IMG/VR virus record: IMGVR_UViG_3300032268_001078
Span: 115,716-179,715 of that record
From: a virus
Direction: 5' to 3' (one strand)
Length of the DNA: 64,000 nt
In this document: positions 7,287-58,706 of the stretch, piece after piece
Layout of the letters: the number at the start of each line of letters is the position of its first letter
Numbering within the stretch: the first letter of the stretch is position 1
The notes under the pieces: model-generated
Databases searched by the model: none
Told to the model about the DNA's origin: nothing
What the model saw: the letters and a program-made list of their open reading frames with translations, nothing else
Translations under genes and position numbers: made by a program

Positions 7287-8975
7287 TTAAACTACATCTA
7301 AATCCGCTACTAAGATTTTTCCGTAGTAATCAGGACGGATCATTTTCTTAGCGTATCTTGTCATTATCCCCTTGCGTGGAGTGAAGGTTTCAGGATCGTA
7401 GATAAGAGGAGTCATAATCAATGGAACATATGGAGCATAAACTGCACCAGTTTCCAAGAATTGACCACCTTTATAACCTAATAAAATTGTGTTATCTTTG
7501 AAGTATGGGTTTTTGTAAACTTTGTAACGACCGTTGATAGCACCAATCTTTTGAACACCAAATGCATATTTCATTGTTTCAGCATCAGTATTGTCAGCTG
7601 CAAATCCTGGAATTGATTCCAAAATAGTAGCTACTGCTGGAGAAATAACCATGAAATTAGCACCACCACGTAAAGTTCTTTGGTGGATGATGTTAGAGAT
7701 TTTTTGCAATTTGATTCCTAAAGTTTGGAACCAAGACATTTGGTTGTAGTAAACACCAGCTGTGTTACTTACAAATGCGTTTTGAGCTGCGTTGATTTGG
7801 TTACCAACTTTTGCAGACCAAAATTCAGTTGTAGCTGCACCTTGCAACAACATACCTAAAATTTCAAGATCAATTTCCATTGAAATTTGTTCAGACAACA
7901 ATGAAGTTAATTCAGCTTCAGCATCCAAGTTTTGGTATGCGTTCAAGTCTTGAGCAAATTCAGGAGTCCATTGAGCTTTCATTTTACGAGTTTCAGCAGT
8001 AATACTGTCAGAACGTAATTTGATGTTGATTTCAGGGAAAACAATACTTGTGTTTGATTGAGCATTAGGAAAAGCTAAACCACTATTGCCATCTTCAAAA
8101 TCACCAGCATTGAATGGGTTTACTGTAGTTTCTTTAAAGAAGTAAGCAATACCAGCAGTACCGGCAGAAGCAGTAGCAGCTACACCAGTAGCAGAAGCAG
8201 TTACATACCAATAAACATTTCCGTCAGCTTTAATATTAGTTAATTCAGCCAATACAGTATTTGGAGTAGTTCCAGAACCACTGATGTACCAAGCAGAAAT
8301 TGCAGATAAATCAGCAATAACACCAGAACCAGTAAATGCACTTGAAGCAGAAACTTCAAAGATTTGACCAGCAGCTAAAGAAGCTGTATAACGAGCATCA
8401 AAATTTAATTTAGCGAAATCACCAACTGTAGTTTGAGATAAAGTTTTAGCTTTCAAAGTAACAGAAGCTGAAAATTCGTTACGAGTGTAACCATAACGAC
8501 CTTGACCATAGTAACCACCTTCAGCTAAGTTACTGAAGTTACTGTTACCAAATCCAGGTGCTGGTGTACCATATAAAGAATCACCACTAGAGAAAGGAGC
8601 TTTATTAGTTCCATATTGGAAATCCAAATAGAAGATAAGTCCTGAAGGCATAGACATAGGTTGTACGCTAACAAATTCTTTAGCTACAACTTGACCAAAG
8701 ATCTTACGAATCATTGGTAAAGCAACACCAGCCCATTGGTAACCGTTACCAACCTGGAAACCAGATGCTGGTGAACTTTGAGGGCCTGATGTATTAGTTT
8801 CAACGATAAGTTGTTTAGCTTGGTTTTCCAACAACATAGACATATTAGTCTTGTCATATCCACTCAAACCTTCCAACAAACCAGATTTACCCCATTTGCC
8901 TGCTAAACGAGCTGCGTCGTTTTGCAAAGACTGCCATGGGTTAGCAGATTCGAGGAGTTGATTAATTGTACTCAT
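7287..8975 (-). CDS. gp23: Major capsid protein (T4 gp23-like)
   Basis: KWGKSGLLEGL, VSVQPMSMPSGLIFYLDF, RKMKAQWTPEFAQDLNAY, EIDLEIL, FYTPRKG-type end (FTPRKGIMTRYA). Confidence 0.95.
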   Translation of the reverse strand: MSTINQLLESANPWQSLQNDAARLAGKWGKSGLLEGLSGYDKTNMSMLLENQAKQLIVETNTSGPQSSPASGFQVGNGYQWAGVALPMIRKIFGQVVAKEFVSVQPMSMPSGLIFYLDFQYGTNKAPFSSGDSLYGTPAPGFGNSNFSNLAEGGYYGQGRYGYTRNEFSASVTLKAKTLSQTTVGDFAKLNFDARYTASLAAGQIFEVSASSAFTGSGVIADLSAISAWYISGSGTTPNTVLAELTNIKADGNVYWYVTASATGVAATASAGTAGIAYFFKETTVNPFNAGDFEDGNSGLAFPNAQSNTSIVFPEINIKLRSDSITAETRKMKAQWTPEFAQDLNAYQNLDAEAELTSLLSEQISMEIDLEILGMLLQGAATTEFWSAKVGNQINAAQNAFVSNTAGVYYNQMSWFQTLGIKLQKISNIIHQRTLRGGANFMVISPAVATILESIPGFAADNTDAETMKYAFGVQKIGAINGRYKVYKNPYFKDNTILLGYKGGQFLETGAVYAPYVPLIMTPLIYDPETFTPRKGIMTRYAKKMIRPDYYGKILVADLDVV

Positions 8976-10526: not shown

Positions 10527-11159
10527 TTATCTTATACAACAAACTCCGGTTTGGCTACAAATAATATCTGTAACTAACGAATGGATTTTATTGTAAGGAT
10601 TAGTATTTGTATTATAATTATAATTTTTAGATTCATTTAATCCACCTACTGGTCTCATATAAGCACCATGTGTAGATGGCGTACTTACAAAATCCCAACA
10701 AACTAAATCAAAATCATCTTGTACTTCAACTGTGTTTTCATTCATGGGTGTTGTTGAACCCATTCCACGAGATGAAATACCTACTGTAATATTATTTAAA
10801 AATAAATGTTTTAAAATATTTCCTGAAGGAGTATCTAAAACTTCTATGCGACCAAATAAATCATCACCGTCCCACCATAATTTTTGAATATTATGACAAA
10901 CATTTTTAAGATTAATTACTGATGATTCAGGATGATCTAATTCTCCTAATGCTCTATTTTGAGCAATAGGTCCTTGAATGTATTTTGCAACTTCTCTTTC
11001 TAGAATTCCTTTAGGGTAAATACGGCCATTTTCATTTTTAGCATTAGCCCGTTGTACAATACCTTCTACAATTAAATTTTTAGAAGGATTCATCCTTGCC
11101 TCATGTAAATTTTGGGCAATAGGTTTAAAAGGAATATATTCTATTAAAATTTGAGACAT
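10527..11159 (-). CDS. gp21: Prohead protease (T4 gp21-like, S77)
   Basis: NENGRIYP, ALGELDHP, LDTPSG, GISSRGMGS, WDFVSTPS motifs. Confidence 0.95.
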   Translation of the reverse strand: MSQILIEYIPFKPIAQNLHEARMNPSKNLIVEGIVQRANAKNENGRIYPKGILEREVAKYIQGPIAQNRALGELDHPESSVINLKNVCHNIQKLWWDGDDLFGRIEVLDTPSGNILKHLFLNNITVGISSRGMGSTTPMNENTVEVQDDFDLVCWDFVSTPSTHGAYMRPVGGLNESKNYNYNTNTNPYNKIHSLVTDIICSQTGVCCIR

Positions 11160-13935: not shown

Positions 13936-15900
13936 TTAACTAGGAGACATAATGTTGTTTTCACTTAACAAACCATCATCGTCTTTTGATTCAAATAAGT
14001 TTATTTTTCTCATTCCACTTAAACCACTCAACATATTTTTATTTTGAAGATAAACAGTTTGGGTACTTTCTAATGCTAAAGGTGAACCACCTTTATATTG
14101 TGTTTTTCCAAGTTTATTTTCACCTTCTTCTGGAGCTGAGTATTCTTTGCGGCCTAAGCGATCTTTCCCAAATGGACTATCTTGAGTATCAATAACACTA
14201 GATTTCTTTTCAGGTCTACCAGGTAACCTAACTTTATTAGGTTGATTTTCATCATATCCTGTTGGTACTTGTTCTGGTGCTTTTGGAGGTCCTGTATAGC
14301 GACCTGGTCCATATATTGTTGCTAATATATGAGGTGTACCATATGCTTGTCCTGTTTCTGCTGGATCGTTTCCTTCTTCTTCTACTTGTTTTAATCTAAA
14401 TAAGCGTTTTTTATCTTCAATTACTAAATCTCTCATTTCATCTACTTCATCTTCACTAAAATGAAATACATTATCATAAATCCAATCACTAGGCATTAAG
14501 CCAGATTCTTGAACTGATTTAGCTAAGTCAACTTTTTCTTTCCATAATGCAACTCTTTCTTGATCATAGATAATACTTGGTGTAGTTAATGAAAGTTCAA
14601 AATTTGCTAATGCTTCTCCATCGTATCCTTGAACATATAAATGAACCAACGCAATTTTTGTAAGTTCACTTACTAATATTCGTTGTAAACGTTCTACTGT
14701 ACGAGCAAATCTAATGTCTTCAGCAGCTAATGTAGCTTTACCGGTTAAATCTTTTTCATAACCCATAAATGCTTTAGGAACTTTAAGAGCGGCAAATAAT
14801 TTGTCTCTTAAATATTCTACATCTGTAATACCATCATAGTTTAATCCAGGAACATTATCAATTCTAGTAGTTGTATCATTACCACGAACTGGAATATAAT
14901 AATCTTCCATCATATTTTGAACATTATATTTTAAATTATATTGGCCTGTTTGGTTATCCACAAATGGAGTTTTTTTCAATTTACTAACCATTTGTTGCAT
15001 ATAATTGTCTACTTCTGCTGGAGGAATAGCACCAATATTAATATAAAATAATCTTCTGTCTGGAGCGCGAGTAATTCTATGAATTAACATAGCATCTTCC
15101 ATCAACATATATTGTTTAAATAATTTACGAGCAGGCTCTAAATAACTTCTACCATAAGGTAAATAGTTAACATCACTTAATAATCTAAAGTGAGCCATTT
15201 CATAATTTTCAAAATAAATTCCTTCTTCTACATCTTTATTTCCATAACTAGCCCAACCTGCTGCACTAGAAGCACCAGATCCAGCTGCTGGATCATATTT
15301 AAATCTAACATAAGATGGATTGTCTAATTTAATACCTTCTTCTCTTAAAATATTAAAACTACTAAATGGAATAACATTATAAACACCAAATTTTTCAGCA
15401 ATTTCTAATTTTAAATAAAAATCACCGTATTTAAACATGTTTCTAGCCCATGACCATAAATTAAATTCAACATTCAATACATCATAAAACAAGTTATAAA
15501 GAATTTTTTGAATATTTTCATCACTAGAACGAATATGAAGCATTTCTCCACTTTCATTTCGTAAAGTACACTCATCTGCTAAAATATCTAATGCTGATGC
15601 TACAATAGCATCACTATCCATTGCTTCATAATCAGAATATAATTGAGGTCTGATTGAAGGATAATTAATAGCGGTTTGACCAGCATATGCTGCTACTCCT
15701 GATGTGGTGTAAATTCTATTGAATCTATCTACTACAGAGTTAGTTTGAAGTACCCCCTGAGATTGGATTCTATCAGTATCAATTACTTTTAGTTGATCTC
15801 CTCCTACATTTCGTATTACTACGTCTGCTGAGAATAATTTCTTTAATCTTCCAAATATACCTGTGGTAGGTGTTTGTGGATTTATTTGTTGTTCTGCCAT
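13936..15900 (-). CDS. gp20: Portal protein (T4 gp20-like)
   Basis: GRSYLEPARK, LMEDAMLIHRITRAPDRRLFYINIG, MMEDYYIPVRG, YLRDKLFAALKVPK. Confidence 0.95.
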   Translation of the reverse strand: MAEQQINPQTPTTGIFGRLKKLFSADVVIRNVGGDQLKVIDTDRIQSQGVLQTNSVVDRFNRIYTTSGVAAYAGQTAINYPSIRPQLYSDYEAMDSDAIVASALDILADECTLRNESGEMLHIRSSDENIQKILYNLFYDVLNVEFNLWSWARNMFKYGDFYLKLEIAEKFGVYNVIPFSSFNILREEGIKLDNPSYVRFKYDPAAGSGASSAAGWASYGNKDVEEGIYFENYEMAHFRLLSDVNYLPYGRSYLEPARKLFKQYMLMEDAMLIHRITRAPDRRLFYINIGAIPPAEVDNYMQQMVSKLKKTPFVDNQTGQYNLKYNVQNMMEDYYIPVRGNDTTTRIDNVPGLNYDGITDVEYLRDKLFAALKVPKAFMGYEKDLTGKATLAAEDIRFARTVERLQRILVSELTKIALVHLYVQGYDGEALANFELSLTTPSIIYDQERVALWKEKVDLAKSVQESGLMPSDWIYDNVFHFSEDEVDEMRDLVIEDKKRLFRLKQVEEEGNDPAETGQAYGTPHILATIYGPGRYTGPPKAPEQVPTGYDENQPNKVRLPGRPEKKSSVIDTQDSPFGKDRLGRKEYSAPEEGENKLGKTQYKGGSPLALESTQTVYLQNKNMLSGLSGMRKINLFESKDDDGLLSENNIMSPS

Positions 15901-15907
15901 TGTTTTG

Positions 15908-17512
15908 TTATAATAACCATGTTAAATCTACAATATTACCTTGGGCATCTTGCATTTTAAATGGATTTTGGTTGTTAGTGTAATTTGTATTATACATTGC
16001 TGGCATATGTAAGGCTGTTGATTTTCCTATTCCTTGAATTGCCATTTTTGTTAACTCATCTCCAGTTTGTTTATATTTTAAACTTGTGTCTCTTAAAAAC
16101 ATTCCTATTCCTAAAGCCATAACTAAGTCATCATTATATCCGTCTTGTGCTTGTGCTTTACCATGTTTCCACACAAAAGTCCTTAATTCTTCCAATGTTC
16201 TTTTTGATTGAATAGTTACTGATTTTTCATGAATATAAGAAATCATTTTAGCAATGACCAGTGGTCTAGTACGAAGAGATGTAGTAAATCCTGGAACCAT
16301 TCCTTCACCTGACTGGTATTTGTTAAGATACAATTCAACATTTACTAATGCTGCATCTTGTCTTGGTGAATAATATAGATTTGGATATTGTCTTTCAATA
16401 ACTGTTTGAACTACATCCCAACCTACGTTAGCATTTTCAACTACTAATAAAGCATTATTATATTCTGTAGCAATACCAACTAAAAAATGACCATAGTCAC
16501 GAGTTCCAATTTGTCCTTTATATTCTCCAACTTGAGTATTGGTTTCTATGTCAAAAATATGGAAAGCACTGTAATCTTTTCCGTCTCCTCTTGCACAATC
16601 TGCAATAACTGCGTATTGTTTTGAATAATCTGGACGTTCAAATATCCAAAGATTACCATCCATCCCACGTTTTTCTACAGGTTCTTTAACATTTGTTTCA
16701 ATATACCAATTAAGAACCGAAGGATCAATAGCAGTATCACCGGAAGTTGTAAAATCACAATCACATTCTTGTGCTGCCATTCTTGGTCCTAAATCAACAT
16801 CTTGTTGATCTCTCCACGATTGATTGCGTTCAGGATGTACAGTCCAAGGTAATCTTATTGGTAAGAAACTAGTTTGACCTTCTTCTGCTTTAACCCAAGT
16901 TCTATGAAACCAGTTTCCTGTACCATATGGAGTAGACATTGCAATACATCCACCACCTGTTGCTAAGGTTTGTTGAGCTGAAACGAATACTTCTTCGATA
17001 TTATCAATAAACGCAGCCTCGTCAATCAACAACAATGATACGGCTTCTGAACGTGCACTATCACCAGCTGCTGAAACGGCTTTCATTTGAGATCCATTTG
17101 CTAATCGAATACTGAGTTTGTTGTTTTCAATTGTTTTAATTTGCATCCAACTAGGTAAGTTATCATAACCAAATTTTACTTTAGTTACCATATTTTTAGC
17201 TGTTTCAGTTTTAGTCGCAATACATAACACGTTTTTATCTGTGTTAAATAACATTAACCACAAACTGTAACCCGATGCTAAAGTACTAATACCTAATTGA
17301 CGAGATTTATTAATAATACAAAATGGATTTTTTAAATATAATTTTAATACTGCTTCTTGAAAAGGATAAAGTTGAAATCTTACTCTACCTCTTGTAGGAT
17401 GTTGAATCATATAATACTTCTTCATGAAGTAAATAGGATCCTGCTTACATCTAATAAGTTCTTGTTGAATTGCTTCTTTTATGGAAGGTTGTATTATTTG
17501 CTTATCTTCCAT
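15908..17512 (-). CDS. gp17: Terminase large subunit (T4 gp17-like)
   Basis: KSRQLGIST Walker A variant, LLLIDEAAFI Walker B, STPYG, nuclease domain with DDLVMAL. Confidence 0.95.
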   Translation of the reverse strand: MEDKQIIQPSIKEAIQQELIRCKQDPIYFMKKYYMIQHPTRGRVRFQLYPFQEAVLKLYLKNPFCIINKSRQLGISTLASGYSLWLMLFNTDKNVLCIATKTETAKNMVTKVKFGYDNLPSWMQIKTIENNKLSIRLANGSQMKAVSAAGDSARSEAVSLLLIDEAAFIDNIEEVFVSAQQTLATGGGCIAMSTPYGTGNWFHRTWVKAEEGQTSFLPIRLPWTVHPERNQSWRDQQDVDLGPRMAAQECDCDFTTSGDTAIDPSVLNWYIETNVKEPVEKRGMDGNLWIFERPDYSKQYAVIADCARGDGKDYSAFHIFDIETNTQVGEYKGQIGTRDYGHFLVGIATEYNNALLVVENANVGWDVVQTVIERQYPNLYYSPRQDAALVNVELYLNKYQSGEGMVPGFTTSLRTRPLVIAKMISYIHEKSVTIQSKRTLEELRTFVWKHGKAQAQDGYNDDLVMALGIGMFLRDTSLKYKQTGDELTKMAIQGIGKSTALHMPAMYNTNYTNNQNPFKMQDAQGNIVDLTWLL

Positions 17513-18783: not shown

Positions 18784-18819
18784 ATATATAATATAATAAA
18801 TTTTTAATTAAAAACCAAA

Positions 18820-29247: not shown

Positions 29248-29826
29248 TTATTGTATTTTTTCTTTCTGTAATTTAATCCAATCTTTTACTTCTTTAACAT
29301 GTTCTGGTGTTAAACTATTTCCAGTCCATTCATTTACTTCACCGTCTTCAGTTAAAGTTTTACTAAATCCTAATTTAATAAAATCATCAAATTCCATTTC
29401 TATATTATTTAACATTTGATTTAAATTATTAGTATGTAAGTTTTTAGCATATTCTTCAAATTTACCTTCTAACTTTAAATTACTTTCCATTTTAGCAATA
29501 CATGTAGGACATTTATGTAGTAAATTATACATGTATTTTACATAATCACTTTTGTGATTTAATAGTCCATTACATTCAGGACAAGTAAGAGGCATATTAA
29601 ATTGTTTTTTAAACTTACTTAATTTAGGAATACTTCTTTTAATACCATTTTTAATAGTCCAAGTTTTACCTTGTTCTTCCCATGTGTCTCCTTCTTTTCT
29701 TTGAATATTATTTTCATAACCTATTTGACTTTGTGTTTTATCGCCATGTTTTTTCATAACAATATTTCGCATTCTTTGTACTTCACGCTCAGTAAACTGG
29801 CGATTTAGTAATGTTTCTTTATTCAT
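29248..29826 (-). CDS. Hypothetical zinc-finger protein
   Basis: CPEC and CPTC pairs. Confidence 0.55.
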   Translation of the reverse strand: MNKETLLNRQFTEREVQRMRNIVMKKHGDKTQSQIGYENNIQRKEGDTWEEQGKTWTIKNGIKRSIPKLSKFKKQFNMPLTCPECNGLLNHKSDYVKYMYNLLHKCPTCIAKMESNLKLEGKFEEYAKNLHTNNLNQMLNNIEMEFDDFIKLGFSKTLTEDGEVNEWTGNSLTPEHVKEVKDWIKLQKEKIQ

Positions 29827-32252
29827 AACTCGTATTTGTGTAATTTTTCTATTGATTCTTTTGAATTTTCTGGGTTGTTTTTTATTCCTATCCCACCAGC
29901 TTGAGTAAATTCTGTTGTGTTTTTACTCATATCATCTATTAAGATATAACCTTCTTTAGCTTCTGTGTGTTTATCTTTTGCTTGTTTAAATACTCTGCGA
30001 TTTTGTGGAATAGATGTATGTTTATTTAACCATTCATTTTTACCTTTTTTAGCGTCTCCATTAGGATCTAAACCAGGACTTGATAATACCCAAACTTCAA
30101 TACCATTTTTAGGAGCCATTTTCATAACATAATTATAAAGTTCTTTTCCTCCAGGATTCCAATTCATTCCTGACCAGTATGTATCTGTTCCTTTGTTAAT
30201 TATATCCCAAGCTTTTTTAGCGCCATATTTTCCAATGTATTCTTTAAAATCTAATTTTTCGTCATTGTATTTTTTAAACTGCTCGTCAAAATCAGCTAAT
30301 ACTCCATCTAAATCAAAGTAAATTCTTGTAATTTTTGGATTTTTTTTTTCATTTAATTTAGGAGTATTGTCATGTCCACATTTATGACACACATACATAT
30401 CTTTTCCTCCATCTTTCTTTTTCCAAGTCCAACCACAATTATCACAAGTTATAGTTTTTTTTGTTTCAGATTCGTTTAACACACCAATTTTATAAATGTC
30501 TGGGTTTTGTTTGCCATAGTCTCTCATAATAATACCAGCAATACTATTAGCATCATTTTCATGGTCACTGCCTGTTTCACCACTATTTGGTTTAAGTAAA
30601 CCTATTTCATTTTGTTTAGCATGAACTAATTCATGAGCTAATGTTCTATAAATGTCAACAATATTCCTATTAGAAGGATTAATGAGTATATGATGATCAA
30701 AGGGAACATAAGCCCCAAAGCTAGGTTGTTCCTCTCCGAATTCGTATCGGATTTCCAACGTTGGCGGGTTTTGAATTTGGAGTTCTTGACAGGCATAAGA
30801 CATAAAATTATTTAAAAGTGATTGGATATTATCTTGAGATGATTCATTCAATGAAATTGTTTTATCAATCAACTCATTTTTTAAATCATTCAATTTATCT
30901 AAATAACCTGTGTTTCTTAAATCTTTAAATGCTAAATTTTCAACTGAGTATTCTCCGTTTTTATCTAATCCAGCTTGTCTAAAATTCTTTAAACGTTCTT
31001 GTATTGTTTTTATTTGTTCTATTGATTTTTCAGGATTTTTATTTCCTGTTTTTAATAATTGATTTATTTTTTCTTTAAAAGGACGAGATTTTTTCTTAAT
31101 ATTTCCATCAGGAATATTTATAGCTTCATATTCTGGTTTCTTTTCCCATTTATCATTTAATACTGAATAAACTCCTGTAGATGTGTGTTTTTCATTTAGG
31201 TTTTGAACATAAATTTCTATAGGTTGTTTACCTAGTTTTGGATCATGAGCATTATTCCAATTATTTTTTGCTGAGTCAAACCATTTCTTTACCATTTCTG
31301 GGTTGGGAAATTTATTAAAATCAATAACAATGTGTAAATCTATATCAGATAAATTAGAATAATTGTAATTAGCAGATGAACCTGTTAATACAACATCATC
31401 AAATGGTTCAGGAATATCTAAACCATCCCAAAACATTGTAGCAATTTTTAATAATAATTCTTTAACTTGTGGGTCTAATTTGTCACCATCAAATAACATA
31501 GGATTAAGTTGGTTATTATTTTTATATTCTTCTAACCAAACCCAATTTTTTTCTTTATTATAGTTATTATCCTCTTGTAATGATTTAGGATTAATTGGAT
31601 TTATTTTTAGAATTTTTAAAAAATCATCAAATAATCCTTTATTAATAAGAGATTCAGGCATTAATGCTTTTAAATAATCATATGTGTTGTTATAATCATT
31701 TAAAGCTATTGTATATTCTTTAGTTCCTTTTTGTTGTTTACGTAGTTTATTAAAAGTTTCTTTTAATTTACTTATTGTTCCAACAAATTCAGCTTCACCA
31801 ACGTCTTCTCCATCTTTATCAGTAAAATGATCATTTATAACTTGACTATAAACACGATCACTAAATTTTTCTTGTAGTTTATTTACATACCCATTAGTTG
31901 TTTCTTCTTGAGATCCAGCAACATATGCTTCATTTTCTAAATTAGCAAAAAAGCTAAATAAGTCTTTAATAGGAGATGCATTTTTAGCAATAGCAATTTT
32001 TACCTTTGGATTTGGATTAGATTCTAAATATAAATCCCAAATAGCTTTACTTTGTTGTGGAGTAACATTGTTTTTAGTATCGTTTCCTATTAAAACAATA
32101 ACTTGATTTATATAGTTTTTTCCAGCTAATGATTCAACAGCATTAAAATGTCCTTTATTAGGTGGTTTAAAAGCCCCTGGATAATAACATGATAAAGGAG
32201 GATTTGCTATTTGTTCTCCTATTTGTTTCCCTATTTGTTCTATATTTACCAT
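29823..32252 (-). CDS. Multidomain fusion: HxGH-like cytidylyltransferase fold + pol-beta-type nucleotidyltransferase + HExxH zincin + Zn ribbon + HAD 5'(3')-nucleotidase
   Basis: YPGAFKPPNKGH; LTGSSANYNYSNLSDIDLH; LAHELVH; CDNC...CHKC; IYFDLDGVLADF...LIDD. Confidence 0.8.
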   Translation of the reverse strand: MVNIEQIGKQIGEQIANPPLSCYYPGAFKPPNKGHFNAVESLAGKNYINQVIVLIGNDTKNNVTPQQSKAIWDLYLESNPNPKVKIAIAKNASPIKDLFSFFANLENEAYVAGSQEETTNGYVNKLQEKFSDRVYSQVINDHFTDKDGEDVGEAEFVGTISKLKETFNKLRKQQKGTKEYTIALNDYNNTYDYLKALMPESLINKGLFDDFLKILKINPINPKSLQEDNNYNKEKNWVWLEEYKNNNQLNPMLFDGDKLDPQVKELLLKIATMFWDGLDIPEPFDDVVLTGSSANYNYSNLSDIDLHIVIDFNKFPNPEMVKKWFDSAKNNWNNAHDPKLGKQPIEIYVQNLNEKHTSTGVYSVLNDKWEKKPEYEAINIPDGNIKKKSRPFKEKINQLLKTGNKNPEKSIEQIKTIQERLKNFRQAGLDKNGEYSVENLAFKDLRNTGYLDKLNDLKNELIDKTISLNESSQDNIQSLLNNFMSYACQELQIQNPPTLEIRYEFGEEQPSFGAYVPFDHHILINPSNRNIVDIYRTLAHELVHAKQNEIGLLKPNSGETGSDHENDANSIAGIIMRDYGKQNPDIYKIGVLNESETKKTITCDNCGWTWKKKDGGKDMYVCHKCGHDNTPKLNEKKNPKITRIYFDLDGVLADFDEQFKKYNDEKLDFKEYIGKYGAKKAWDIINKGTDTYWSGMNWNPGGKELYNYVMKMAPKNGIEVWVLSSPGLDPNGDAKKGKNEWLNKHTSIPQNRRVFKQAKDKHTEAKEGYILIDDMSKNTTEFTQAGGIGIKNNPENSKESIEKLHKYEL

Positions 32253-32269
32253 TACTCAATTAATAAATA

Positions 32270-43923: not shown

Positions 43924-43936
43924 GTGTTAATAAATA

Positions 43937-52703: not shown

Positions 52704-54041
52704 TTATCTAATTCCAGCCATTCGTTGAATTCTTTCAAGTAAAGCATTATCAGCATCATCTGCTGTTAAATCACTTCTCATTTGACTAAACATACCTTTC
52801 AACTGATTCATTTGTTGAGGTGTTATTCTATCATTAATAATATTAGTAATTAATTGAATAAATTCATTATTTTCTAATTTATAAATATCTTGTAAAAAAT
52901 CGTCTCTTTCAGCTGGTGTAACATTGGTTTCTAATTTATTAATTACATCTTGTAAACCTTTAGCTATAATTTGACCATAAGCAATATCTTCAGGTTCATT
53001 TTGAATTTTATCAGTATATTTAACTACTTTTTCTCCTCTTTCTAAATCACTAAAACCAAATAAACCAATAATTTCATACATTCCTTTTACAATTTCATGA
53101 ATTAATACTGGAAAACAAATAGCTCTTGCTTTAATAATCCATTTTTCTTTTTCAAAATCAAAATAAACACTTTCAGCTCCTACACTACTATCTTCCATTG
53201 GTGATCCACCCCCTCCTGACATTCCTAACATAAAATCAATCATATCAAGGGCCGCTTGCATTAAATCTCTGTATTTATCACTTGCACCTTCTCCACTAAC
53301 AATATCAACATATTCTTGTTGAACATAATGAGCTGTTTTACTTAAACTTGCTCCACCTTGAGTTACAGAATTAATAAGTCTTCTTTTCATTAATTCACCT
53401 GTTAATTCTTCAGCTTCATCTTCTTCTTCTTCATCCATTTCAGGTGTATTTAAAGCATCTTTAACTTGAGATTGTGGAACTATTTTAGCATCAATTTCAA
53501 TAGCATCAGTTTGTGCTAAATAAGGATAAGCTTCATTAACAACATCTAAAGCTAGTTGTTCTAATAAATCTTCGTTTCCTTTTTCCATTTGCATTACTTG
53601 CATAGCAAGTTGTTGCATTTGTCTTCCTACTTGCATTGGATTTTTACCTTGAATCCTTTGAGCAACTCCACCTTTAAGTTTACCTAAAGTTTCAGGATCA
53701 AAAATTTTATCATACTCAGCTTCATTTAATTTATCAAATTCAGCCTTATATCTAGCTACAATTTTATTCATAATACTATTTGAAGCTTCTTTCATTCCAG
53801 CTGGTTTTGGTTTTGGACCGTTTTTAGGAGCCTGATGTGGTTTTTCTGTTCCTTTAGTTTGAGCTTTAGGAGCTGGTTTAGGACTAGTAGCTGGACTTGG
53901 AACAGAACGTCTTCTAGGTTCTGGTCTTGTAGAAGGTCTTCCTGGCATTACATCCGGTTGAGGAGCTTTTCCTGGTTGTTCCTGAGGAGCTCTTTGTGGA
54001 GCAGCAGGACTTTCATTTAAAAGATTTTTAAGCTTAATCAT
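52704..54041 (-). CDS. Putative internal head protein with Pro-rich N-terminus
   Basis: MIKLKNLLNE N-terminus; KRRLINSVTQGG and FPVLIHEIVKG core; C-terminal RIQRMAGIR. Confidence 0.6.
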   Translation of the reverse strand: MIKLKNLLNESPAAPQRAPQEQPGKAPQPDVMPGRPSTRPEPRRRSVPSPATSPKPAPKAQTKGTEKPHQAPKNGPKPKPAGMKEASNSIMNKIVARYKAEFDKLNEAEYDKIFDPETLGKLKGGVAQRIQGKNPMQVGRQMQQLAMQVMQMEKGNEDLLEQLALDVVNEAYPYLAQTDAIEIDAKIVPQSQVKDALNTPEMDEEEEDEAEELTGELMKRRLINSVTQGGASLSKTAHYVQQEYVDIVSGEGASDKYRDLMQAALDMIDFMLGMSGGGGSPMEDSSVGAESVYFDFEKEKWIIKARAICFPVLIHEIVKGMYEIIGLFGFSDLERGEKVVKYTDKIQNEPEDIAYGQIIAKGLQDVINKLETNVTPAERDDFLQDIYKLENNEFIQLITNIINDRITPQQMNQLKGMFSQMRSDLTADDADNALLERIQRMAGIR

Positions 54042-54229
54042 AGTATTATTATAACAATAAATATATTATAAATTAGTATCTTATAAATCTCTAAATAGTT
54101 TTTTAATTACTTTTTTGTGGGTATTTAAATAATTTTTTGACTTCGACTACTTTGATATATTAACGTTTATTATTAATATTACCAAATAAACTTTCGCTTA
54201 TTCCGTCAATTAAATTCAAATATAAATTA

Positions 54230-55222
54230 TTATTTATAAGGATCTAAAATATAACCATCTTCCATTTTATTTTGTACCATATTAATAGAAAATTTACTAA
54301 TATATTCACTATTATCTTTCTTAAGTAAAACACTATTACCTTCAAAACCTACTATATAATAACTAGATTCAGAACTTATCACTCCAGGTTCAATAGTATC
54401 TCCTTTACCTAAATAAATAATATTAGGGTTAAAGTCTTTAGCCATTTCTAAATCATCTGGTGTTAATTCAAATTTTTCATTTACTTTATCTAAAATTTTA
54501 ACATCAACTTGTAAGTCTTCCCATTCATTTTCCCAAGGTGATTCATAATAATCTTCAGGTATATCTTCAATAACTTCATCACCTTCTAGTATTTTTCTCA
54601 TTAAAAAATCACTATCCCATAGATTATCATAAATAATTGATTCAATTTCTTCTGGGTTATAAGGAATAGACATTCCTAATTCTCTTTCTAAATCTTCACT
54701 ATTAATTATACATTTAGTCGTTTTTTCAATTAAATCATTCTCTTCATCTTCATAATTATAAAAATTATATGTTGAATGACTTATTATTTCAATATTAAAA
54801 TCTTGGAAATGTTTAGCTAATTCTAAATCTTCGTCTCCTAAAGAAAATTCTTCTTCTTTTAATTTAGGTTTAGGTAAAATTATTTTATGTCCATTTGAAA
54901 GCATTTTTTGAACATCATCAAGATCCATTTTAAATACATTACGTGGCTCACCTTCTTCAACTAAATTTATTTTCCAAACAGCAACACCATTTTTATCTTC
55001 TTGATATATTTTTTGAACAATAAAATTACCATTTCCTATGTATCTGTAAATTATATCTGGATTTTTAAACATATTGGCATTGATTTTACTGCCTTTTGTT
55101 ATGTTTTGATTTTGAAGACCCTTAGCTAATTCTAAATCGTTATCTCCTAAAGAAAATTCTTCTTGTTCATTTAAGAATAATTGATATTCTTTCCATTTAT
55201 GTAAGTCAAAGTTGTCTCTCAT
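54230..55222 (-). CDS. Acidic three-module repeat protein (start probably ATG 55222)
   Basis: Three F(S/E)L(G/T)xxDLExAK motifs, each preceded by LNE, LKE or VNE. Confidence 0.75.
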   Translation of the reverse strand: MRDNFDLHKWKEYQLFLNEQEEFSLGDNDLELAKGLQNQNITKGSKINANMFKNPDIIYRYIGNGNFIVQKIYQEDKNGVAVWKINLVEEGEPRNVFKMDLDDVQKMLSNGHKIILPKPKLKEEEFSLGDEDLELAKHFQDFNIEIISHSTYNFYNYEDEENDLIEKTTKCIINSEDLERELGMSIPYNPEEIESIIYDNLWDSDFLMRKILEGDEVIEDIPEDYYESPWENEWEDLQVDVKILDKVNEKFELTPDDLEMAKDFNPNIIYLGKGDTIEPGVISSESSYYIVGFEGNSVLLKKDNSEYISKFSINMVQNKMEDGYILDPYK

Positions 55223-55608
55223 TTTGTTTTTCCCCAAGTTTTACCTTTACCTTTTCTTTTACATCCAGCTGGAGTAGGTCTACAAGCAGGATACTTTGAT
55301 CTTACTTCACCTTTTTTTCTTCCACAAGCTTTATAACCTCCTTTTCCATCAGGAGCATTACAATCTACCCAACCACCTTCTTTACCTTTTGGACCTGAAC
55401 GTTTAAACCACTTATGAAGCGATTCATCTTCATTAACTGTTTCTTCAGAAATTCCTTTCCAAATTTCACCTCTACGACATCTAACTACAGCACCTGACTT
55501 ATAAGCTGATGGTTTGTCAAACTTACGATCAGCAATTCGAAGACATCTGTCTCGTTTTGATTTTTTTTCAGTAAGAACTTCTGTTAATATATTTGTAAGT
55601 TTAATCAT
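55219..55608 (-). CDS. Small basic Cys-containing protein (two mini-domains)
   Basis: MIKLTNILTE; PSAYKSGAVVRC; VNE junction; LHKWF...WVDC...CGR...YPACRP. Confidence 0.65.
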   Translation of the reverse strand: MIKLTNILTEVLTEKKSKRDRCLRIADRKFDKPSAYKSGAVVRCRRGEIWKGISEETVNEDESLHKWFKRSGPKGKEGGWVDCNAPDGKGGYKACGRKKGEVRSKYPACRPTPAGCKRKGKGKTWGKTK

Positions 55609-55846
55609 TTATAGGTTCCCACCAATTAGTACAATATTCATCAGCTGCATAAGGAATTTTATTTGTACCTGCCCAATCACTGTAATAAGTACTTGTACAA
55701 ATTTGTTCTTCTTTATTCCAAAATTTACAATTAGCACAACAAGAACCTCCTTTAGGTACTTTTAAACCGGCTTTATGGGTTGGAGGTAAAATCATTTCAC
55801 CTTTACCACCATAGTTTTCTGTTAATATGTTTGTAAGTTTAATCAT
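55601..55846 (-). CDS. Small Cys-rich (metal-binding) protein; start reassigned to ATG 55846
   Basis: MIKLTNILTE; CCANC...C...CTNW. Confidence 0.65.
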   Translation of the reverse strand: MIKLTNILTENYGGKGEMILPPTHKAGLKVPKGGSCCANCKFWNKEEQICTSTYYSDWAGTNKIPYAADEYCTNWWEPIND

Positions 55847-55847
55847 A

Positions 55848-56237
55848 TTACCATTTTCTACAAGACCAATAGTTTGCTTTATGGCGAGGACCTGGATTAT
55901 CACAATGGTGTCTTGCTCTATAAGCTGCTCTTCGTTTAGGATTATTTTTCTTAATAACCATTCGTTTACCTTTAGCACTTTTGCCTCCAAAACCAAAATT
56001 TACTTTAACTACTTTACCTTTAGGATTTTTAACATATACCTTAAATTTTTTGATGTCACCTTGCATAGGTTTACCTAATTGTACCTTACGACCTTTGTAT
56101 TCTGCTTCACGTAAACAAGAATCACAATCAGTAGATTTATATTCTCTCATAAATTGAATAAACGATCTAACATCATCAATGTTTTCAACATCGTATTCTT
56201 CAATTTCATTATTAATAAGTTCAGTTAATTTTATCAT
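55848..56237 (-). CDS. Small basic protein of the AEYxGRKV...RARHxC...YWSCxKW family (recalled as widespread in T4-like cyanophages)
   Basis: AEYKGRKVQLGKP...KKFKVYVKNPKGKVVKVNFG...YRARHHC...YWSCRKW. Confidence 0.7.
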   Translation of the reverse strand: MIKLTELINNEIEEYDVENIDDVRSFIQFMREYKSTDCDSCLREAEYKGRKVQLGKPMQGDIKKFKVYVKNPKGKVVKVNFGFGGKSAKGKRMVIKKNNPKRRAAYRARHHCDNPGPRHKANYWSCRKW

Positions 56238-57937
56238 CTGTTATAAATATTAGGTTCAATCATATATTCTGGTTTTAATAAATAATTAATATTTTCTATG
56301 TCGATATTAATTTCATTTCCATTTTCAGTATTTAAATAAACATAATTATCTTCAATCATAGAAATTGTCCAATTTTCATCACGATTATCAATAAAATTTT
56401 CTAAGTCAGGATTATTTGGATTCCACATATTAGGAGTAATTTGGTTACCTACTTCTAAGTATTTAATAACTTTTAAACCATTAGTTAATCCAATATCTTC
56501 AGGACCCATTTCAAAAGTTTCGTTTATATTATTTTCTAAATAAGCATCAAAATCACCAATTAATTCTTTATTAGTTATATTTAAATATGGTTCCATATCT
56601 CCATAATCATACATATCTAACATGTATTCTTTAATATTGTCTAATTCAAAATTAGCTTTAATTAAAATAGGAACAGCCCATTCTTTAAATTCTTCATATG
56701 TTTCTCCTGTCCAATTTTCTTCATCTAAACCTTTAGCCAGTTCTAAATCTTCATCACCCAACTCAAATGTTTCCTCTAAATCATTTTTACTAGGAATATA
56801 AGCATTTATATTATTCATAAGATCTTTATTAAAATAATCTACAGTAAAAGTATAAACATTCTCAGGACGCATAGCAAACTCAAATGCTACTATTTCATCA
56901 TCATAATAAACAAGTTCTTTATACTGGCCTTCATTTGGACCTATGTAAATAATTTTTTTAACAAGACTACGTATACGTGAAGGAGCATCTTCTAATTTTG
57001 TCCAAGCACCAGCATATTCAGGATTAGAACTATCATAAAAATAGTCTCCTACTTTAAGTTCACGTTTATTAAAATCTTTAGCTAGTTCTAAATCTTCATC
57101 TCCTAATTCAAAGTCTTCATTAACTCGATTTAAAGGTTTAATTAAATCAACAGTAACTTCCATTTCATCAAGATTCCAAGCATCTTGAGGAAATTTAGAC
57201 CAATTAATAGGATTAAATACTTTATAAGCTTTATCTTGAATCCACTCTTCAATAAGATGACTACTCCACAAATCAGCAGGTTGCCCAAGTTCCTCATAAG
57301 CTAATTCTATAAGACTTTCATAAAGTGTCTCTATAAAAGCTTTGTCTTTTAATTTACTAGGAATTTCATCTGCAGCATAAGTTTCATATGGACTGTATTT
57401 ATCAATTAATTCTACTAATTCATCAACACTATAGTGAAGTCTATAAGTAGTTTCATGATCAGGTACACTTGGAAATGCTTTAGAATCACTATTCCAATTA
57501 TAAATAAGATGAACGTCTACTTGTACTTCAGGTTCATCATTAAGTTGTTTTGCCAATTTTAAATCTTCATCTCCAAGTTCAAATGACTCGTCTATGGGTT
57601 CTGCTTCAATTCGAAATTCAGGTTTTAAATAACCATTAATTTCATGTAAATCAAAATCAAATTCATAGCCAGTTTGTTGTTGTAAAGTAATAAATTCTCC
57701 ATCTTCATCTGTGTCTATATTTAAAATATATAAGGATTTATCTTGAAAATTAGGATCAAATGACTCACCCCACATTTCAGGCTCAATAGTGTCACCTTGT
57801 GTTAAAAATTTAACATTTAAACCTTTAGCCAGTTCTAAGTCTTCATCACCCAATTCAAATTCTTCATTTATGATTTTTGAATTTCTAGTAACTTTGTTTT
57901 CAATAAGAAATTTTTTAATGTCAAAATTGTTTTTCAT
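56234..57937 (-). CDS. Acidic five-module repeat protein
   Basis: Five FE(L/M)GxED(L/I)xL motifs preceded by INE, IDE, VNE, LEE and INE. Confidence 0.8.
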   Translation of the reverse strand: MKNNFDIKKFLIENKVTRNSKIINEEFELGDEDLELAKGLNVKFLTQGDTIEPEMWGESFDPNFQDKSLYILNIDTDEDGEFITLQQQTGYEFDFDLHEINGYLKPEFRIEAEPIDESFELGDEDLKLAKQLNDEPEVQVDVHLIYNWNSDSKAFPSVPDHETTYRLHYSVDELVELIDKYSPYETYAADEIPSKLKDKAFIETLYESLIELAYEELGQPADLWSSHLIEEWIQDKAYKVFNPINWSKFPQDAWNLDEMEVTVDLIKPLNRVNEDFELGDEDLELAKDFNKRELKVGDYFYDSSNPEYAGAWTKLEDAPSRIRSLVKKIIYIGPNEGQYKELVYYDDEIVAFEFAMRPENVYTFTVDYFNKDLMNNINAYIPSKNDLEETFELGDEDLELAKGLDEENWTGETYEEFKEWAVPILIKANFELDNIKEYMLDMYDYGDMEPYLNITNKELIGDFDAYLENNINETFEMGPEDIGLTNGLKVIKYLEVGNQITPNMWNPNNPDLENFIDNRDENWTISMIEDNYVYLNTENGNEINIDIENINYLLKPEYMIEPNIYNR

Positions 57938-57979
57938 GTGATAATAAATATGGGCTAGCCCAATAAATTACTAAAGCCT

Positions 57980-58250
57980 ACGTATATACCTTGTCGGTTT
58001 AAAGTTGATTTTGTCGTAAGGAGAAATTTGGTCCCTGTGGTTTTAATGTTAATTTGACTTTTTGAGAAATTGGGGGTTTAGCTTTGGGTCGACTTGGAGT
58101 TACTTGGAGTCACTTTGGGTTGACTGAAATTGATTAAGCTGGATTATATGAGGCTAAGAGTATCGACGTATATACCACACATGGTTAGTTTAAAGTTTTT
58201 TAGTCGGAAATAGTAGATTATGTGAGGTTGAGAGTATAGATGTATATACA
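57980..58250. repeat. Non-coding left arm with GTATATAC palindromes and short direct repeats
   Basis: GTATATAC at 57982, 58168 and 58242; a degenerate 34-bp duplicate (58142-58175 vs 58216-58249); (G/T/C)ACTT(G/T)G(A/G)GT 10-bp tandem near 58090-58120. Confidence 0.75.
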
Positions 58251-58344
58251 AAATGCGGATTGGTCGAAGTTGTTCAAGGTAGTGCTTTTCGTCACCCACG
58301 CCCGTGCCACGTCTCCGCGCGTCGATTGACAGCGGCTCGCCGTG

Positions 58345-58382
58345 GGTCTAATATTAGACCACATGCGGACCGCTAGCGGTCC
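58345..58382. other. Twin perfect 16-bp palindromes in a GC-rich island
   Basis: GGTCTAATATTAGACC (58345-58360) and GGACCGCTAGCGGTCC (58367-58382). Confidence 0.95.
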
Positions 58383-58706
58383 AAACGAGGCACCTTTTCA
58401 GAAGAAGAGATTTTAGAGCCCTAGATTATAAACAAGGCAACCTAGTGATTTTTTCGGGCCAGTATGTTAAACGAGGCAACCCACCACTTTTTGGTGGCCC
58501 TAGATTATAAACAAGGCAACCTAGTGATTTTTAGGTGCTCAAGCCTTTAAACGAGGCAAGAGTTTTTCACACATGTACTTTGTGTAATGAATTATAATAA
58601 AAATATTAATTAGGGAATAAAATAAAAAACGAGGCAATTAAAATTTAATCACCACAATTCACATTAATGAATTAGGAATTGGAATCGAAAATTAAGGAAT
58701 CAGGAA

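Follow-up and report, generated by a model that had tools for sequence, protein, structure and literature searches.

Modular polyproteins of a T4-like myovirus: modules that appear to shuffle at tag-coding DNA and may be processed as internal head cargo

The internal proteins of T-even phages form a diverse set with only the capsid-targeting sequence (CTS) in common (PMC3012670, PMC9026906). The protease gp21 recognizes a short motif and cleaves on the C-terminal side of its Glu, by which capsid-targeting sequences of 10-20 residues are removed (PMC5694885, PMC9026906); for the ten-residue CTS of T4, the part of PMC9026906 that cites Mullaney and Black 1996 assigns targeting to residues 4 and 7 and the direction of gp21 processing to residues 8 and 10. 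Here, we describe a locus of the IMG/VR record IMGVR_UViG_3300032268_001078 in which two genes, for proteins of 567 and 330 amino acids (aa), encode chains of small acidic modules, each headed by an [LIV]xE tripeptide (LxE) and a conserved 12-residue tag. The stretch analyzed (64,000 nucleotides, positions 115,716 to 179,715 of the record; hereafter, the window) makes up the right-hand 64 kb of the genome of an uncultured T4-like myovirus, a single contig of 179.7 kb with a G+C content of ~29%, and the minus strand carries nearly all of its genes.

The locus resembles that of the T4 internal proteins (IPI, IPII, IPIII, and Alt) in several respects: it belongs to a T4-like phage with an S77 protease and an acidic scaffold, its short leaders end in LxE, a conserved leader stands on diverse cargo, and the locus is hypervariable between close relatives. 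Unlike the T4 proteins, the cargo here is acidic and has no sequence homology to them, and many domains share one open reading frame (ORF) with the putative cut site and the tag repeated, whereas T4 genes encode a single cargo each, untagged. Polyvalent proteins (Iyer, Burroughs, Anand, de Souza, and Aravind 2017, PMC5512222) comprise 2-15 domains; the proposal is that they travel with the DNA through packaging and delivery and are processed into units afterwards, and their extensive mosaicism is attributed to host conflict (PMC5512222). The proteins of the window are likewise multi-domain phage chains (five and three domains) with mosaic domains. However, polyvalent proteins are defined by recognizable enzymatic or effector domains, usually with an embedded zincin-like peptidase (MPTase), none of which was found in the window proteins with Pfam; processing is proposed here in trans by the prohead protease, and descriptions of polyvalent proteins mention no repeated tag or joint (PMC5512222).

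The giant phages phiKZ, 201phi2-1, and SPN3US likewise use a gp21-related protease whose three-residue motif has Glu ahead of the cut, and in SPN3US the P1' residue is preferably Ser; one protein can have several such sites, and the N-termini of paralogous ejection proteins are shared (PMC5694885, PMC10052503). The cuts there break long N-terminal propeptides down for disposal and leave one mature product, whereas the segments between the sites of the present locus are predicted to be folded domains, modular and shuffled. RNA-virus polyproteins are comparable in that one ORF has a viral protease site at each domain boundary, as proposed here. However, theirs are fixed, essential proteins in a fixed order, whereas number and order are free here, the small domains are mostly paralogous, and a tag follows every site. 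By sequence, the locus belongs to neither the T4 internal proteins nor the polyvalent proteins, and it differs in the repeated joint of putative cut site plus tag and the proposed trans-acting maturation protease.

Modules, LxE sites and tags

The 567-aa protein consists of a leader (residues 1-25) and five modules in the order A-C-E-D-A, where letters denote module classes and B denotes the leader. Both class-A modules are SH3-like, C (157 aa) is alpha/beta, E (115 aa) is beta-rich, and D (84 aa) is helical with low confidence. In the 330-aa protein, the leader MRDNFDLHKW... (residues 1-19) is followed by K (A-related), F (126 aa), and I (A-related). The five and three module starts, each an xxE tripeptide plus tag, agree with a preliminary description made from the sequence of the window, as do the tripeptides themselves (Table 1). 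The immediate contact between tripeptide and tag that it also claimed does not hold at the first two junctions of the 330-aa protein (LNE-QEE-F and LKE-EE-F), where 2-3 residues intervene. A loose regular expression for the tag, applied to the six-frame translation of the whole 179.7-kb genome, gave 8 matches, 5 in the 567-aa and 3 in the 330-aa protein and none elsewhere; each has [LIV]xE ahead, and the tag reads F(E/S)LGxxDLELAK. Four modules that had been grouped as one class were recovered as such by a tag-stripped profile of class-A modules from outside the window (E-values of 8e-20, 5e-23, 3e-7, and 1e-6). The second modules of the two proteins (157 and 126 aa) had been taken as homologous as well, a claim that failed: no sequence-level signal was found between them (hidden Markov model E-values of 0.25-1.8; hhalign probability of 1.8%).

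A word-indexed search returned 19 relatives of these proteins, and an exhaustive phmmer search of 1.84 billion cluster representatives returned 61, all of them metagenomic. They range from ~100 aa (leader plus one module) to 2188 aa. Module number and order, whose variation among relatives had been proposed as a check, do vary: chains hold 1 to 16 or more modules in differing orders, with up to 16 junctions counted in one chain, and the modules of close relatives cluster into about a dozen classes. The architectures of the window are B-A-C-E-D-A and K-F-I, and those of relatives include B-A-F-D-C-D-E-A, A-A-A-A-A-C-E-A-A, and B-G-F-E-A, as well as small proteins of a leader and a single module (P0061, P0074, P0065, and P0068).

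The 95 junctions drawn from 21 close relatives (88 of them unique) gave the consensus [LVI][DNE]E[SETD], then F[EST]L[GST]xxD[LYMI]ELAK. For LxE itself, the test was anchored on the tags alone, with the 12 residues upstream inspected and random 12-mers of the same proteins as background. [LIVMF]xE was found upstream of 81/83 unique FELG-type tags and 116/118 unique F/W..W-type tags (197/201), compared with 27.6% in the background; P3 was L in ~77% and P1' was S in ~47%, and the spacing from LxE to tag was 1-10 residues, mostly 1-5. Other lineages retain LxE ahead of acidic-aromatic tags (FELGPEDYELAK, DDWNVDSSF, DEFNVDAPxEWN, DEWDLEAGPEWN, and DDDFNITTDAF). In P0017, the tag that accompanies it (DDWNVDSSF) is wholly different, and homologous modules bear quite different tags. 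In addition, LxE terminates N-terminal leaders, including leaders on unrelated cargo (P0059 and P0073). LxE is kept across tag types, spacings, and leaders and is thus conserved independently of the tag and the domain, of which it is not a part.

Alignment A1 pairs the F of FELG with that of DEFNV and LAKxFN with xxWN; the FELG-type and DEFNV-type tags may be homologous. The F-x-L...L-x-L pattern of the tag would also fit a small hairpin. L, M, I, and Y variants of the tag are present together in one genome and differ less within a gene than between genes, a pattern that speaks more for recombination or duplication inside genes than for co-evolution with one partner acting in trans. The idea that a genome-wide partner sets the tag type is weakened by it.

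A class-A module with both flanks was folded with AlphaFold on a 45-row module alignment. Its core (residues 28-100) was predicted as a small beta barrel with a predicted local distance difference test score (pLDDT) of 84-94, and the tags appeared as isolated short helices with a pLDDT of 54-71. The full 567-aa chain was predicted as five separate domains, with a pLDDT of 80-94 for the modules and below 50-60 for all five junction segments. In these models, the junctions are probably exposed, and five of the eight modules, with the commonest class among them, would be SH3/Tudor-like barrels. The low-pLDDT junctions, the different tags on the homologous modules of P0017, and the replacement of a tag alone in L004 (see below) indicate that the tag is autonomous and lies outside any repeat fold, the point on which a second proposed check had turned.

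Foldseek searches of PDB and BFVD gave nothing at an E-value of 0.001 or better, and the ESM Atlas feature search gave no usable match, with structure rows at a template-modelling (TM) score of 0.3 or lower. A wide VIA-align comparison, which mostly concerned class A and barely covered the C, E, and D modules, returned generic SH3/Tudor/FeoA/CarD barrels at Z 5-6. Its matches to CarD (4l5g_A, Z 5.3, root-mean-square deviation (rmsd) 2.4 over 52 residues; PF02559 unmatched) and FeoA (7r7b_B, Z 6.2, rmsd 2.6 over 62 residues) lie in the range of generic small barrels. No Pfam match was obtained for 45 isolated class-A modules at E-values up to 5, and the Pfam scan of 33 full-length relatives yielded only HNHc_6, in 3 relatives, and nothing applicable to the window proteins. 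The modules have an isoelectric point (pI) of ~4, and their only likeness to known families or folds is to a generic SH3/Tudor barrel; the anti-defence or DNA-mimic roles suggested for them earlier are speculation.

Module exchange at tag DNA

The locus was compared at the DNA level with five related contigs (L001, L003, L004, L009, and L010; 90-98% identical). The preliminary description had proposed the tag DNA as a crossover point, and the comparison bears this out: an indel, replacements, a reordering, and a gene fusion were found, with breakpoints in or beside the tags.

One of the changes is a deletion: relative to the 330-aa gene, the 227-aa gene of L009 lacks module K and nothing else. 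The remainder is 97-100% identical; the deletion ends in tags 1 and 2, and the two alignments share 48 nt of tag sequence. In L003, an unrelated class-A module (43-62% identity) stands in the place of K; the sequence on either side is 90-100% identical, and the breakpoints lie directly after tag 1 and at tag 2. The corresponding gene of L004 is 93-100% identical except for the ten codons of tag 1 (63%), which is now the Y-type FELGPNDYELAK; here, the tag was replaced and the module behind it was left unaltered.

Similar changes were found in the 567-aa gene. Its D module is missing in L004, and a class-A module stands in its place in L003, with breakpoints at tags 4 and 5. In this comparison, the block of 93-95% identity to L003 and L004 starts at residues 468-473, at junction 5, where the block of 90-91% identity to L009 and L010 ends. 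The order C-E-D of the window is C-D-E in L001, with modules 82-85% identical and adjoining alignments that overlap on tag DNA. In addition, residues 1-56 of the 567-aa protein, together with the upstream DNA, match the start of the first polyprotein gene of relatives, and residues 23-470 match the body of their second polyprotein gene (90-91%). The 567-aa gene therefore arose by fusion, with the join in a tag or immediately behind it.

Within the genome, a DNA repeat search detected a 59-nt family of 7 copies with 63-83% identity; the fifth, degenerate tag of the 567-aa gene was not detected as a DNA repeat in the same search. The conservation of tag DNA that had been described does not go beyond what the peptide and codon bias account for: the fraction of identical codons at identical residues was 0.688 against 0.690 expected. 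Extra conservation by recent gene conversion was rejected within the genome on the same figures, and the lack of excess synonymous identity among the tags indicates that the shuffling events were not very recent here.

Taken together, these alignments identify the tag-coding DNA and the conserved first codons of class-A modules as the apparent site of deletion, replacement, reordering, and moves between genes. The case for module shuffling at the tags, as read from genome comparison, is solid. Since modules are exchanged at tag DNA, the locus behaves as a combinatorial cassette, and the differences in modules among near-identical genomes suggest that the domains that may be released act in host interaction or counter-defence.

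Further differences among the contigs were observed at the gene ends. In L004 (7900-8010) and L009 (8130-8170), the first polyprotein gene ends within a degenerate tag (...EEFTLGTNDINDKI*), and the MIKFKS start of the second gene, read in a different frame, overlaps its final codons; this start is missing from the public gene call for P0009. The polyproteins of L009 and L010 (P0003 and P0002) stop at junction 5, without the terminal class-A module of the window, and the polyprotein of L001 keeps its terminal module. Directly after the polyprotein gene, an opposite-strand cassette was found in L001 (10450-11304, Thy1), L009 (9853-11279, Thy1 and Endonuclease_NS), and L010 (5798-5938, a partial gene); the window has no such cassette at this position.

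Leaders, candidate prohead processing and competing explanations

Starts of the form M-I-K-L-x-x-(I/L)-(L/I)-x(1-2)-E occur in 4 ORFs of the whole genome, all in the polyprotein operon. These MIKLxxLLxE leaders have L4, I/L7, L8, and E10, a pattern match to the T4 CTS without sequence homology to it. The leaders of the polyproteins end in FLIE, IINE, and FLNE. The MKNNFDIKKFLIENK-type leader of the 567-aa protein also heads unrelated cargo in other metagenomic phages, and the leader MxNNFDLKKFLxENKxT...LxE stands on the otherwise unrelated proteins P0059, P0070, and P0073. The second polyprotein gene of relatives opens with MIKFKSIL...ILRE, followed by the tag, which indicates that the two leader types are interchangeable on such chains. 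Between close relatives, the locus is polymorphic, with conserved leaders and variable cargo. In L003 (11172-11726), a 184-aa cargo with the same leader type and no Pfam match replaces the 81-aa gene, and this swap behind a kept leader matches the variation of T-even internal proteins behind a conserved targeting sequence.

Other features also connect the operon with the prohead. The ending (R/S)(I/M)Q(R/K)(M/L)AGI(R/K) was found genome-wide only in the 445-aa protein of the operon and in the gp22-like scaffold, and the distant relative L005 (429 aa) retains the leader and ends in ...LQRLAGL; the shared C-terminal motif may serve for docking in the capsid interior. T4 gp23 is cleaved after Glu65. 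The capsid protein of the present phage has IVE59 followed by T, ~10 residues before the region aligned to T4 gp23 residue 80, which is about where a T4-like cleavage would fall. The gp21 homologue noted earlier was recovered by its Peptidase_S77 match and starts with MSQILIE; T4 gp21 has LIE-9 (PMC9026906).

One leader-bearing protein has an unusual layout. P0070 (369 aa) carries the leader NFDLK(R/K)FLVENK twice, at residue 1 and near residue 184, the second directly after LKE-NK; it could be either two fused cargo genes or a polyprotein whose units retain their own leaders.

We infer a pathway of targeting, cleavage, retention, and ejection from these features. The leader (MKNNFDIKKFLIENK... 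or MRDNFDLHKW...) would be a capsid-targeting propeptide that draws the whole chain into the prohead scaffolding core. The S77 prohead protease would then cut after the Glu of [LIV]-x-E, at the leader end and at every junction, and the capsid would retain separate domains of 9-18 kDa with an acidic tag at each new N-terminus. The released domains would be available for ejection with the DNA and for whatever function they have. The conserved and independently spaced LxE, the portable leaders, the MIKL neighbors, and the C-terminal motif shared with the scaffold provide good circumstantial evidence for gp21-like cleavage and packaging. We find this processing hypothesis attractive and lean, by a little more than even chances, to an internal-head-protein locus of a T4-like myovirus whose cargo is delivered as polyproteins; cleavage, capsid packaging, and an effector function of the chains are likewise slightly more likely than not. 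More tentatively, and with somewhat less than even confidence, the locus might be a self-diversifying effector polyprotein cassette. Each junction would then be a processing site (perhaps also a handling signal) that frees domains and, at the same time, a DNA joint for deletion, swapping, reordering, and fusion, giving combinatorial injected proteins. The logic of such a cassette could be compared with that of polymorphic toxin cassettes, built into head maturation.

Several observations weigh against cleavage and packaging. T4 internal proteins are basic, whereas the modules here are strongly acidic. Junction-like L[DNEQS]E sites inside the modules are not depleted (z = 0.3); general [LIV]xE sites are (z = -4.8), a mixed picture that we did not use as support, as kinship of the sequences and secondary structure may bias it. 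The low pLDDT of the junction models is not proof of disorder. In the MIKL leaders, LxE stands without a tag behind it; cleavage would thus not require the tag, for which the preferred reading offers no role. A P'-side recognition element required by the protease is a weakened candidate for the same reason. Searched with tblastn against 50,697 phage records, the 567-aa protein and a distant 1537-aa relative gave no match, and no cultured phage with the family was found; the Pfam and PHROG scans of both polyproteins gave no match and no known internal protein (IPI-III or Alt). Moreover, known prohead-protease substrates lose terminal propeptides or are degraded, and we found no documented precedent for several folded domains from one chain (PMC10052503, PMC5694885).

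The lack of avoidance of junction-like sites within modules would be expected of an uncleaved multidomain protein, in which LxE and tag form an acidic linker or docking element and the chain would function whole, within the capsid or at another site of the virion, perhaps as a multivalent SH3-like binder. Tandem SH3/Tudor-like barrels with conserved linkers are a common design of multivalent binders, a likeness of fold that is seen here, and the homogeneity of tags within a gene is like that of repeat proteins grown by tandem duplication. However, LxE persists at variable spacing while the tags change completely between lineages, and the same LxE closes leaders, those on unrelated cargo included. 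In addition, the free change of module order and number between near-identical genomes argues against one cooperative structure, and single-module versions occur. We consider an intact chain unlikely.

The acidity of the modules could also point to processed assembly material, cut like T4 gp22, gp67, and gp68, whose fragments would fill the core, control its size or charge, or act as internal peptides. Most of them would be lost ahead of DNA packaging or in its course, and they would not be delivered as effectors. The polyproteins are acidic like the gp22-like scaffold (pI 4.1-4.3 and 4.45), the leader start MKNN...KKFLIE resembles the scaffold start MSNNKKLFEE, and T4 core proteins become short fragments that leave the head (PMC5694885). 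Against these likenesses, a range of 1 to 16 or more modules with turnover between genomes that are 96-98% identical is unexpected for a component critical to dosage or geometry, the modules are predicted to be well-folded globular domains and not a coiled-coil scaffold, and a separate scaffold gene exists, which makes assembly material rather improbable. Late cytoplasmic proteins outside the virion, such as decoys or sponges for host factors with leaders and LxE unrelated to the prohead protease, would suit modules without homology to any virion protein but are very improbable in an operon that holds four genes with T4-CTS-patterned leaders and a protein sharing the scaffold C-terminal motif, lies at the head of the structural block with the upstream motif of structural genes, and has LxE near-universally upstream of tags.

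If the junctions are cut in the prohead, as in the processing that we prefer, the locus would represent a new T4-like mode of capsid loading, in which one targeting signal imports a string of domains and the maturation protease separates them. The cargo set could then be rearranged by recombination at a 36-48-nt joint, the substrate logic of the S77 protease would extend from propeptide removal to true polyprotein processing, and small SH3-like proteins would form a new, abundant class of virion cargo. A design rule for loading several foreign proteins into T4-type heads would follow, with a leader ahead of repeated units of LxE, tag, and domain. Even if no cleavage occurs, the family offers a clean natural case of junction-delimited, exon-like shuffling in a phage gene.

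Operon and genome context

The polyprotein operon lies at the upstream end of the structural block, and its first five genes are joined by overlaps of 4-8 nt or a spacing of 1 nt (Table 1); a gap of 188 nt separates the 330-aa gene from the 445-aa gene. The ATG at 55222 was taken as the start of the 330-aa form, backed by the N-termini of homologues. The three small genes between the polyprotein genes (55219-56237) have near-identical MIKLT(N/E)(I/L)... leaders and unrelated cargo. In the tblastn search, the 445-aa neighbor matched only two unannotated records of uncultured phages, of ~640 kb each. The scaffold-like ORF, assigned by position and composition only, sits between the genes for the S77 protease and the capsid protein, and the Pfam and PHROG scans of it gave no match.

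Table 1. Coordinates of the polyprotein genes, their junctions, and other features of the window
Feature	Position	Strand	Details
567-aa polyprotein gene	56234-57937	-	First gene of operon; pI 4.1, net charge -82
567-aa leader	57863-57937	-	MKNNFDIKKFLIENK...IINE; two LxE sites within
567-aa junction 1	57824-57871	-	INE + EFELGDEDLELAK, aa 23-38
567-aa junction 2	57548-57595	-	IDE + SFELGDEDLKLAK, aa 115-130
567-aa junction 3	57077-57124	-	VNE + DFELGDEDLELAK, aa 272-287
567-aa junction 4	56732-56779	-	LEE + TFELGDEDLELAK, aa 387-402; left breakpoint of D indel/replacement vs L003, L004
567-aa junction 5	56480-56527	-	INE + TFEMGPEDIGLTN, aa 471-486
129-aa basic protein, phrog_7595	55848-56237	-	pI 9.9; leader MIKLTELINNE; start overlaps 567-aa stop by 4 nt
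81-aa Cys-rich protein	55601-55846	-	Leader MIKLTNILTE
129-aa basic protein, DUF5872	55219-55608	-	pI 10.0; leader MIKLTNILTE; overlaps both adjoining genes
330-aa polyprotein gene	54230-55222	-	pI 4.3
330-aa junction 1	55121-55174	-	LNE-QEE-FSLGDNDLELAK, aa 17-34; left end of K deletion (L009) and replacement (L003)
330-aa junction 2	54812-54862	-	LKE-EE-FSLGDEDLELAK, aa 121-137; right end of K deletion and replacement
330-aa junction 3	54437-54484	-	VNE-K-FELTPDDLEMAK, aa 247-262
445-aa protein, Pro-rich N-terminal part	52704-54041	-	Leader MIKLKNLLNE; C-terminus ...RIQRMAGIR*
Terminase	15908-17512		Head module
Portal	13936-15900		Head module
Prohead protease, Peptidase_S77, gp21-like	10527-11159	-	Pfam 8e-33, phrog_207 6e-54; N-terminus MSQILIE
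gp22-like acidic scaffold, 460 aa	9003-10385	-	pI 4.45; N-terminus MSNNKKLFEE; C-terminus ...RMQKLAGIK*
Major capsid protein	7287-8975		Head module
ATTTATT(A/G) examples	57942-57949, 54055-54062, 32261-32268, 43928-43935, 18794-18801	coding strand	
Intergenic region upstream of operon	57938-58700		760 nt
809-aa multi-enzyme fusion	29823-32252	-	

The motif ATTTATT(A/G) was found on the coding strand 5-15 nt before the starts of the 567-aa, 445-aa, and 809-aa genes. It also precedes at least 8 other genes of the structural region, with at least 11 matches directly before genes, and the window holds 51 matches compared with 39 expected. This distribution weakly suggests co-regulation, and the motif might serve either as a late promoter or in translation initiation. 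The T4 late promoter TATAAATA was rejected as a candidate for these genes, being neither enriched nor positioned before them.

The intergenic region upstream of the operon has a higher G+C content and several direct repeats, which include ttgcctcgttt-type boxes and a duplicated stretch of ~36 nt. Elsewhere in the window, the 809-aa fusion matches NT5C nucleotidase (1.4e-5) and, weakly, the putative metallopeptidase DUF6782 (0.002), and may count among the polyvalent proteins as PMC5512222 defines them. Its sequence has L(N/Q)E at residues 126, 225, 352, 468, 592, and 633, and the motif ATTTATTA precedes its gene start, as it does for genes of the polyprotein operon.

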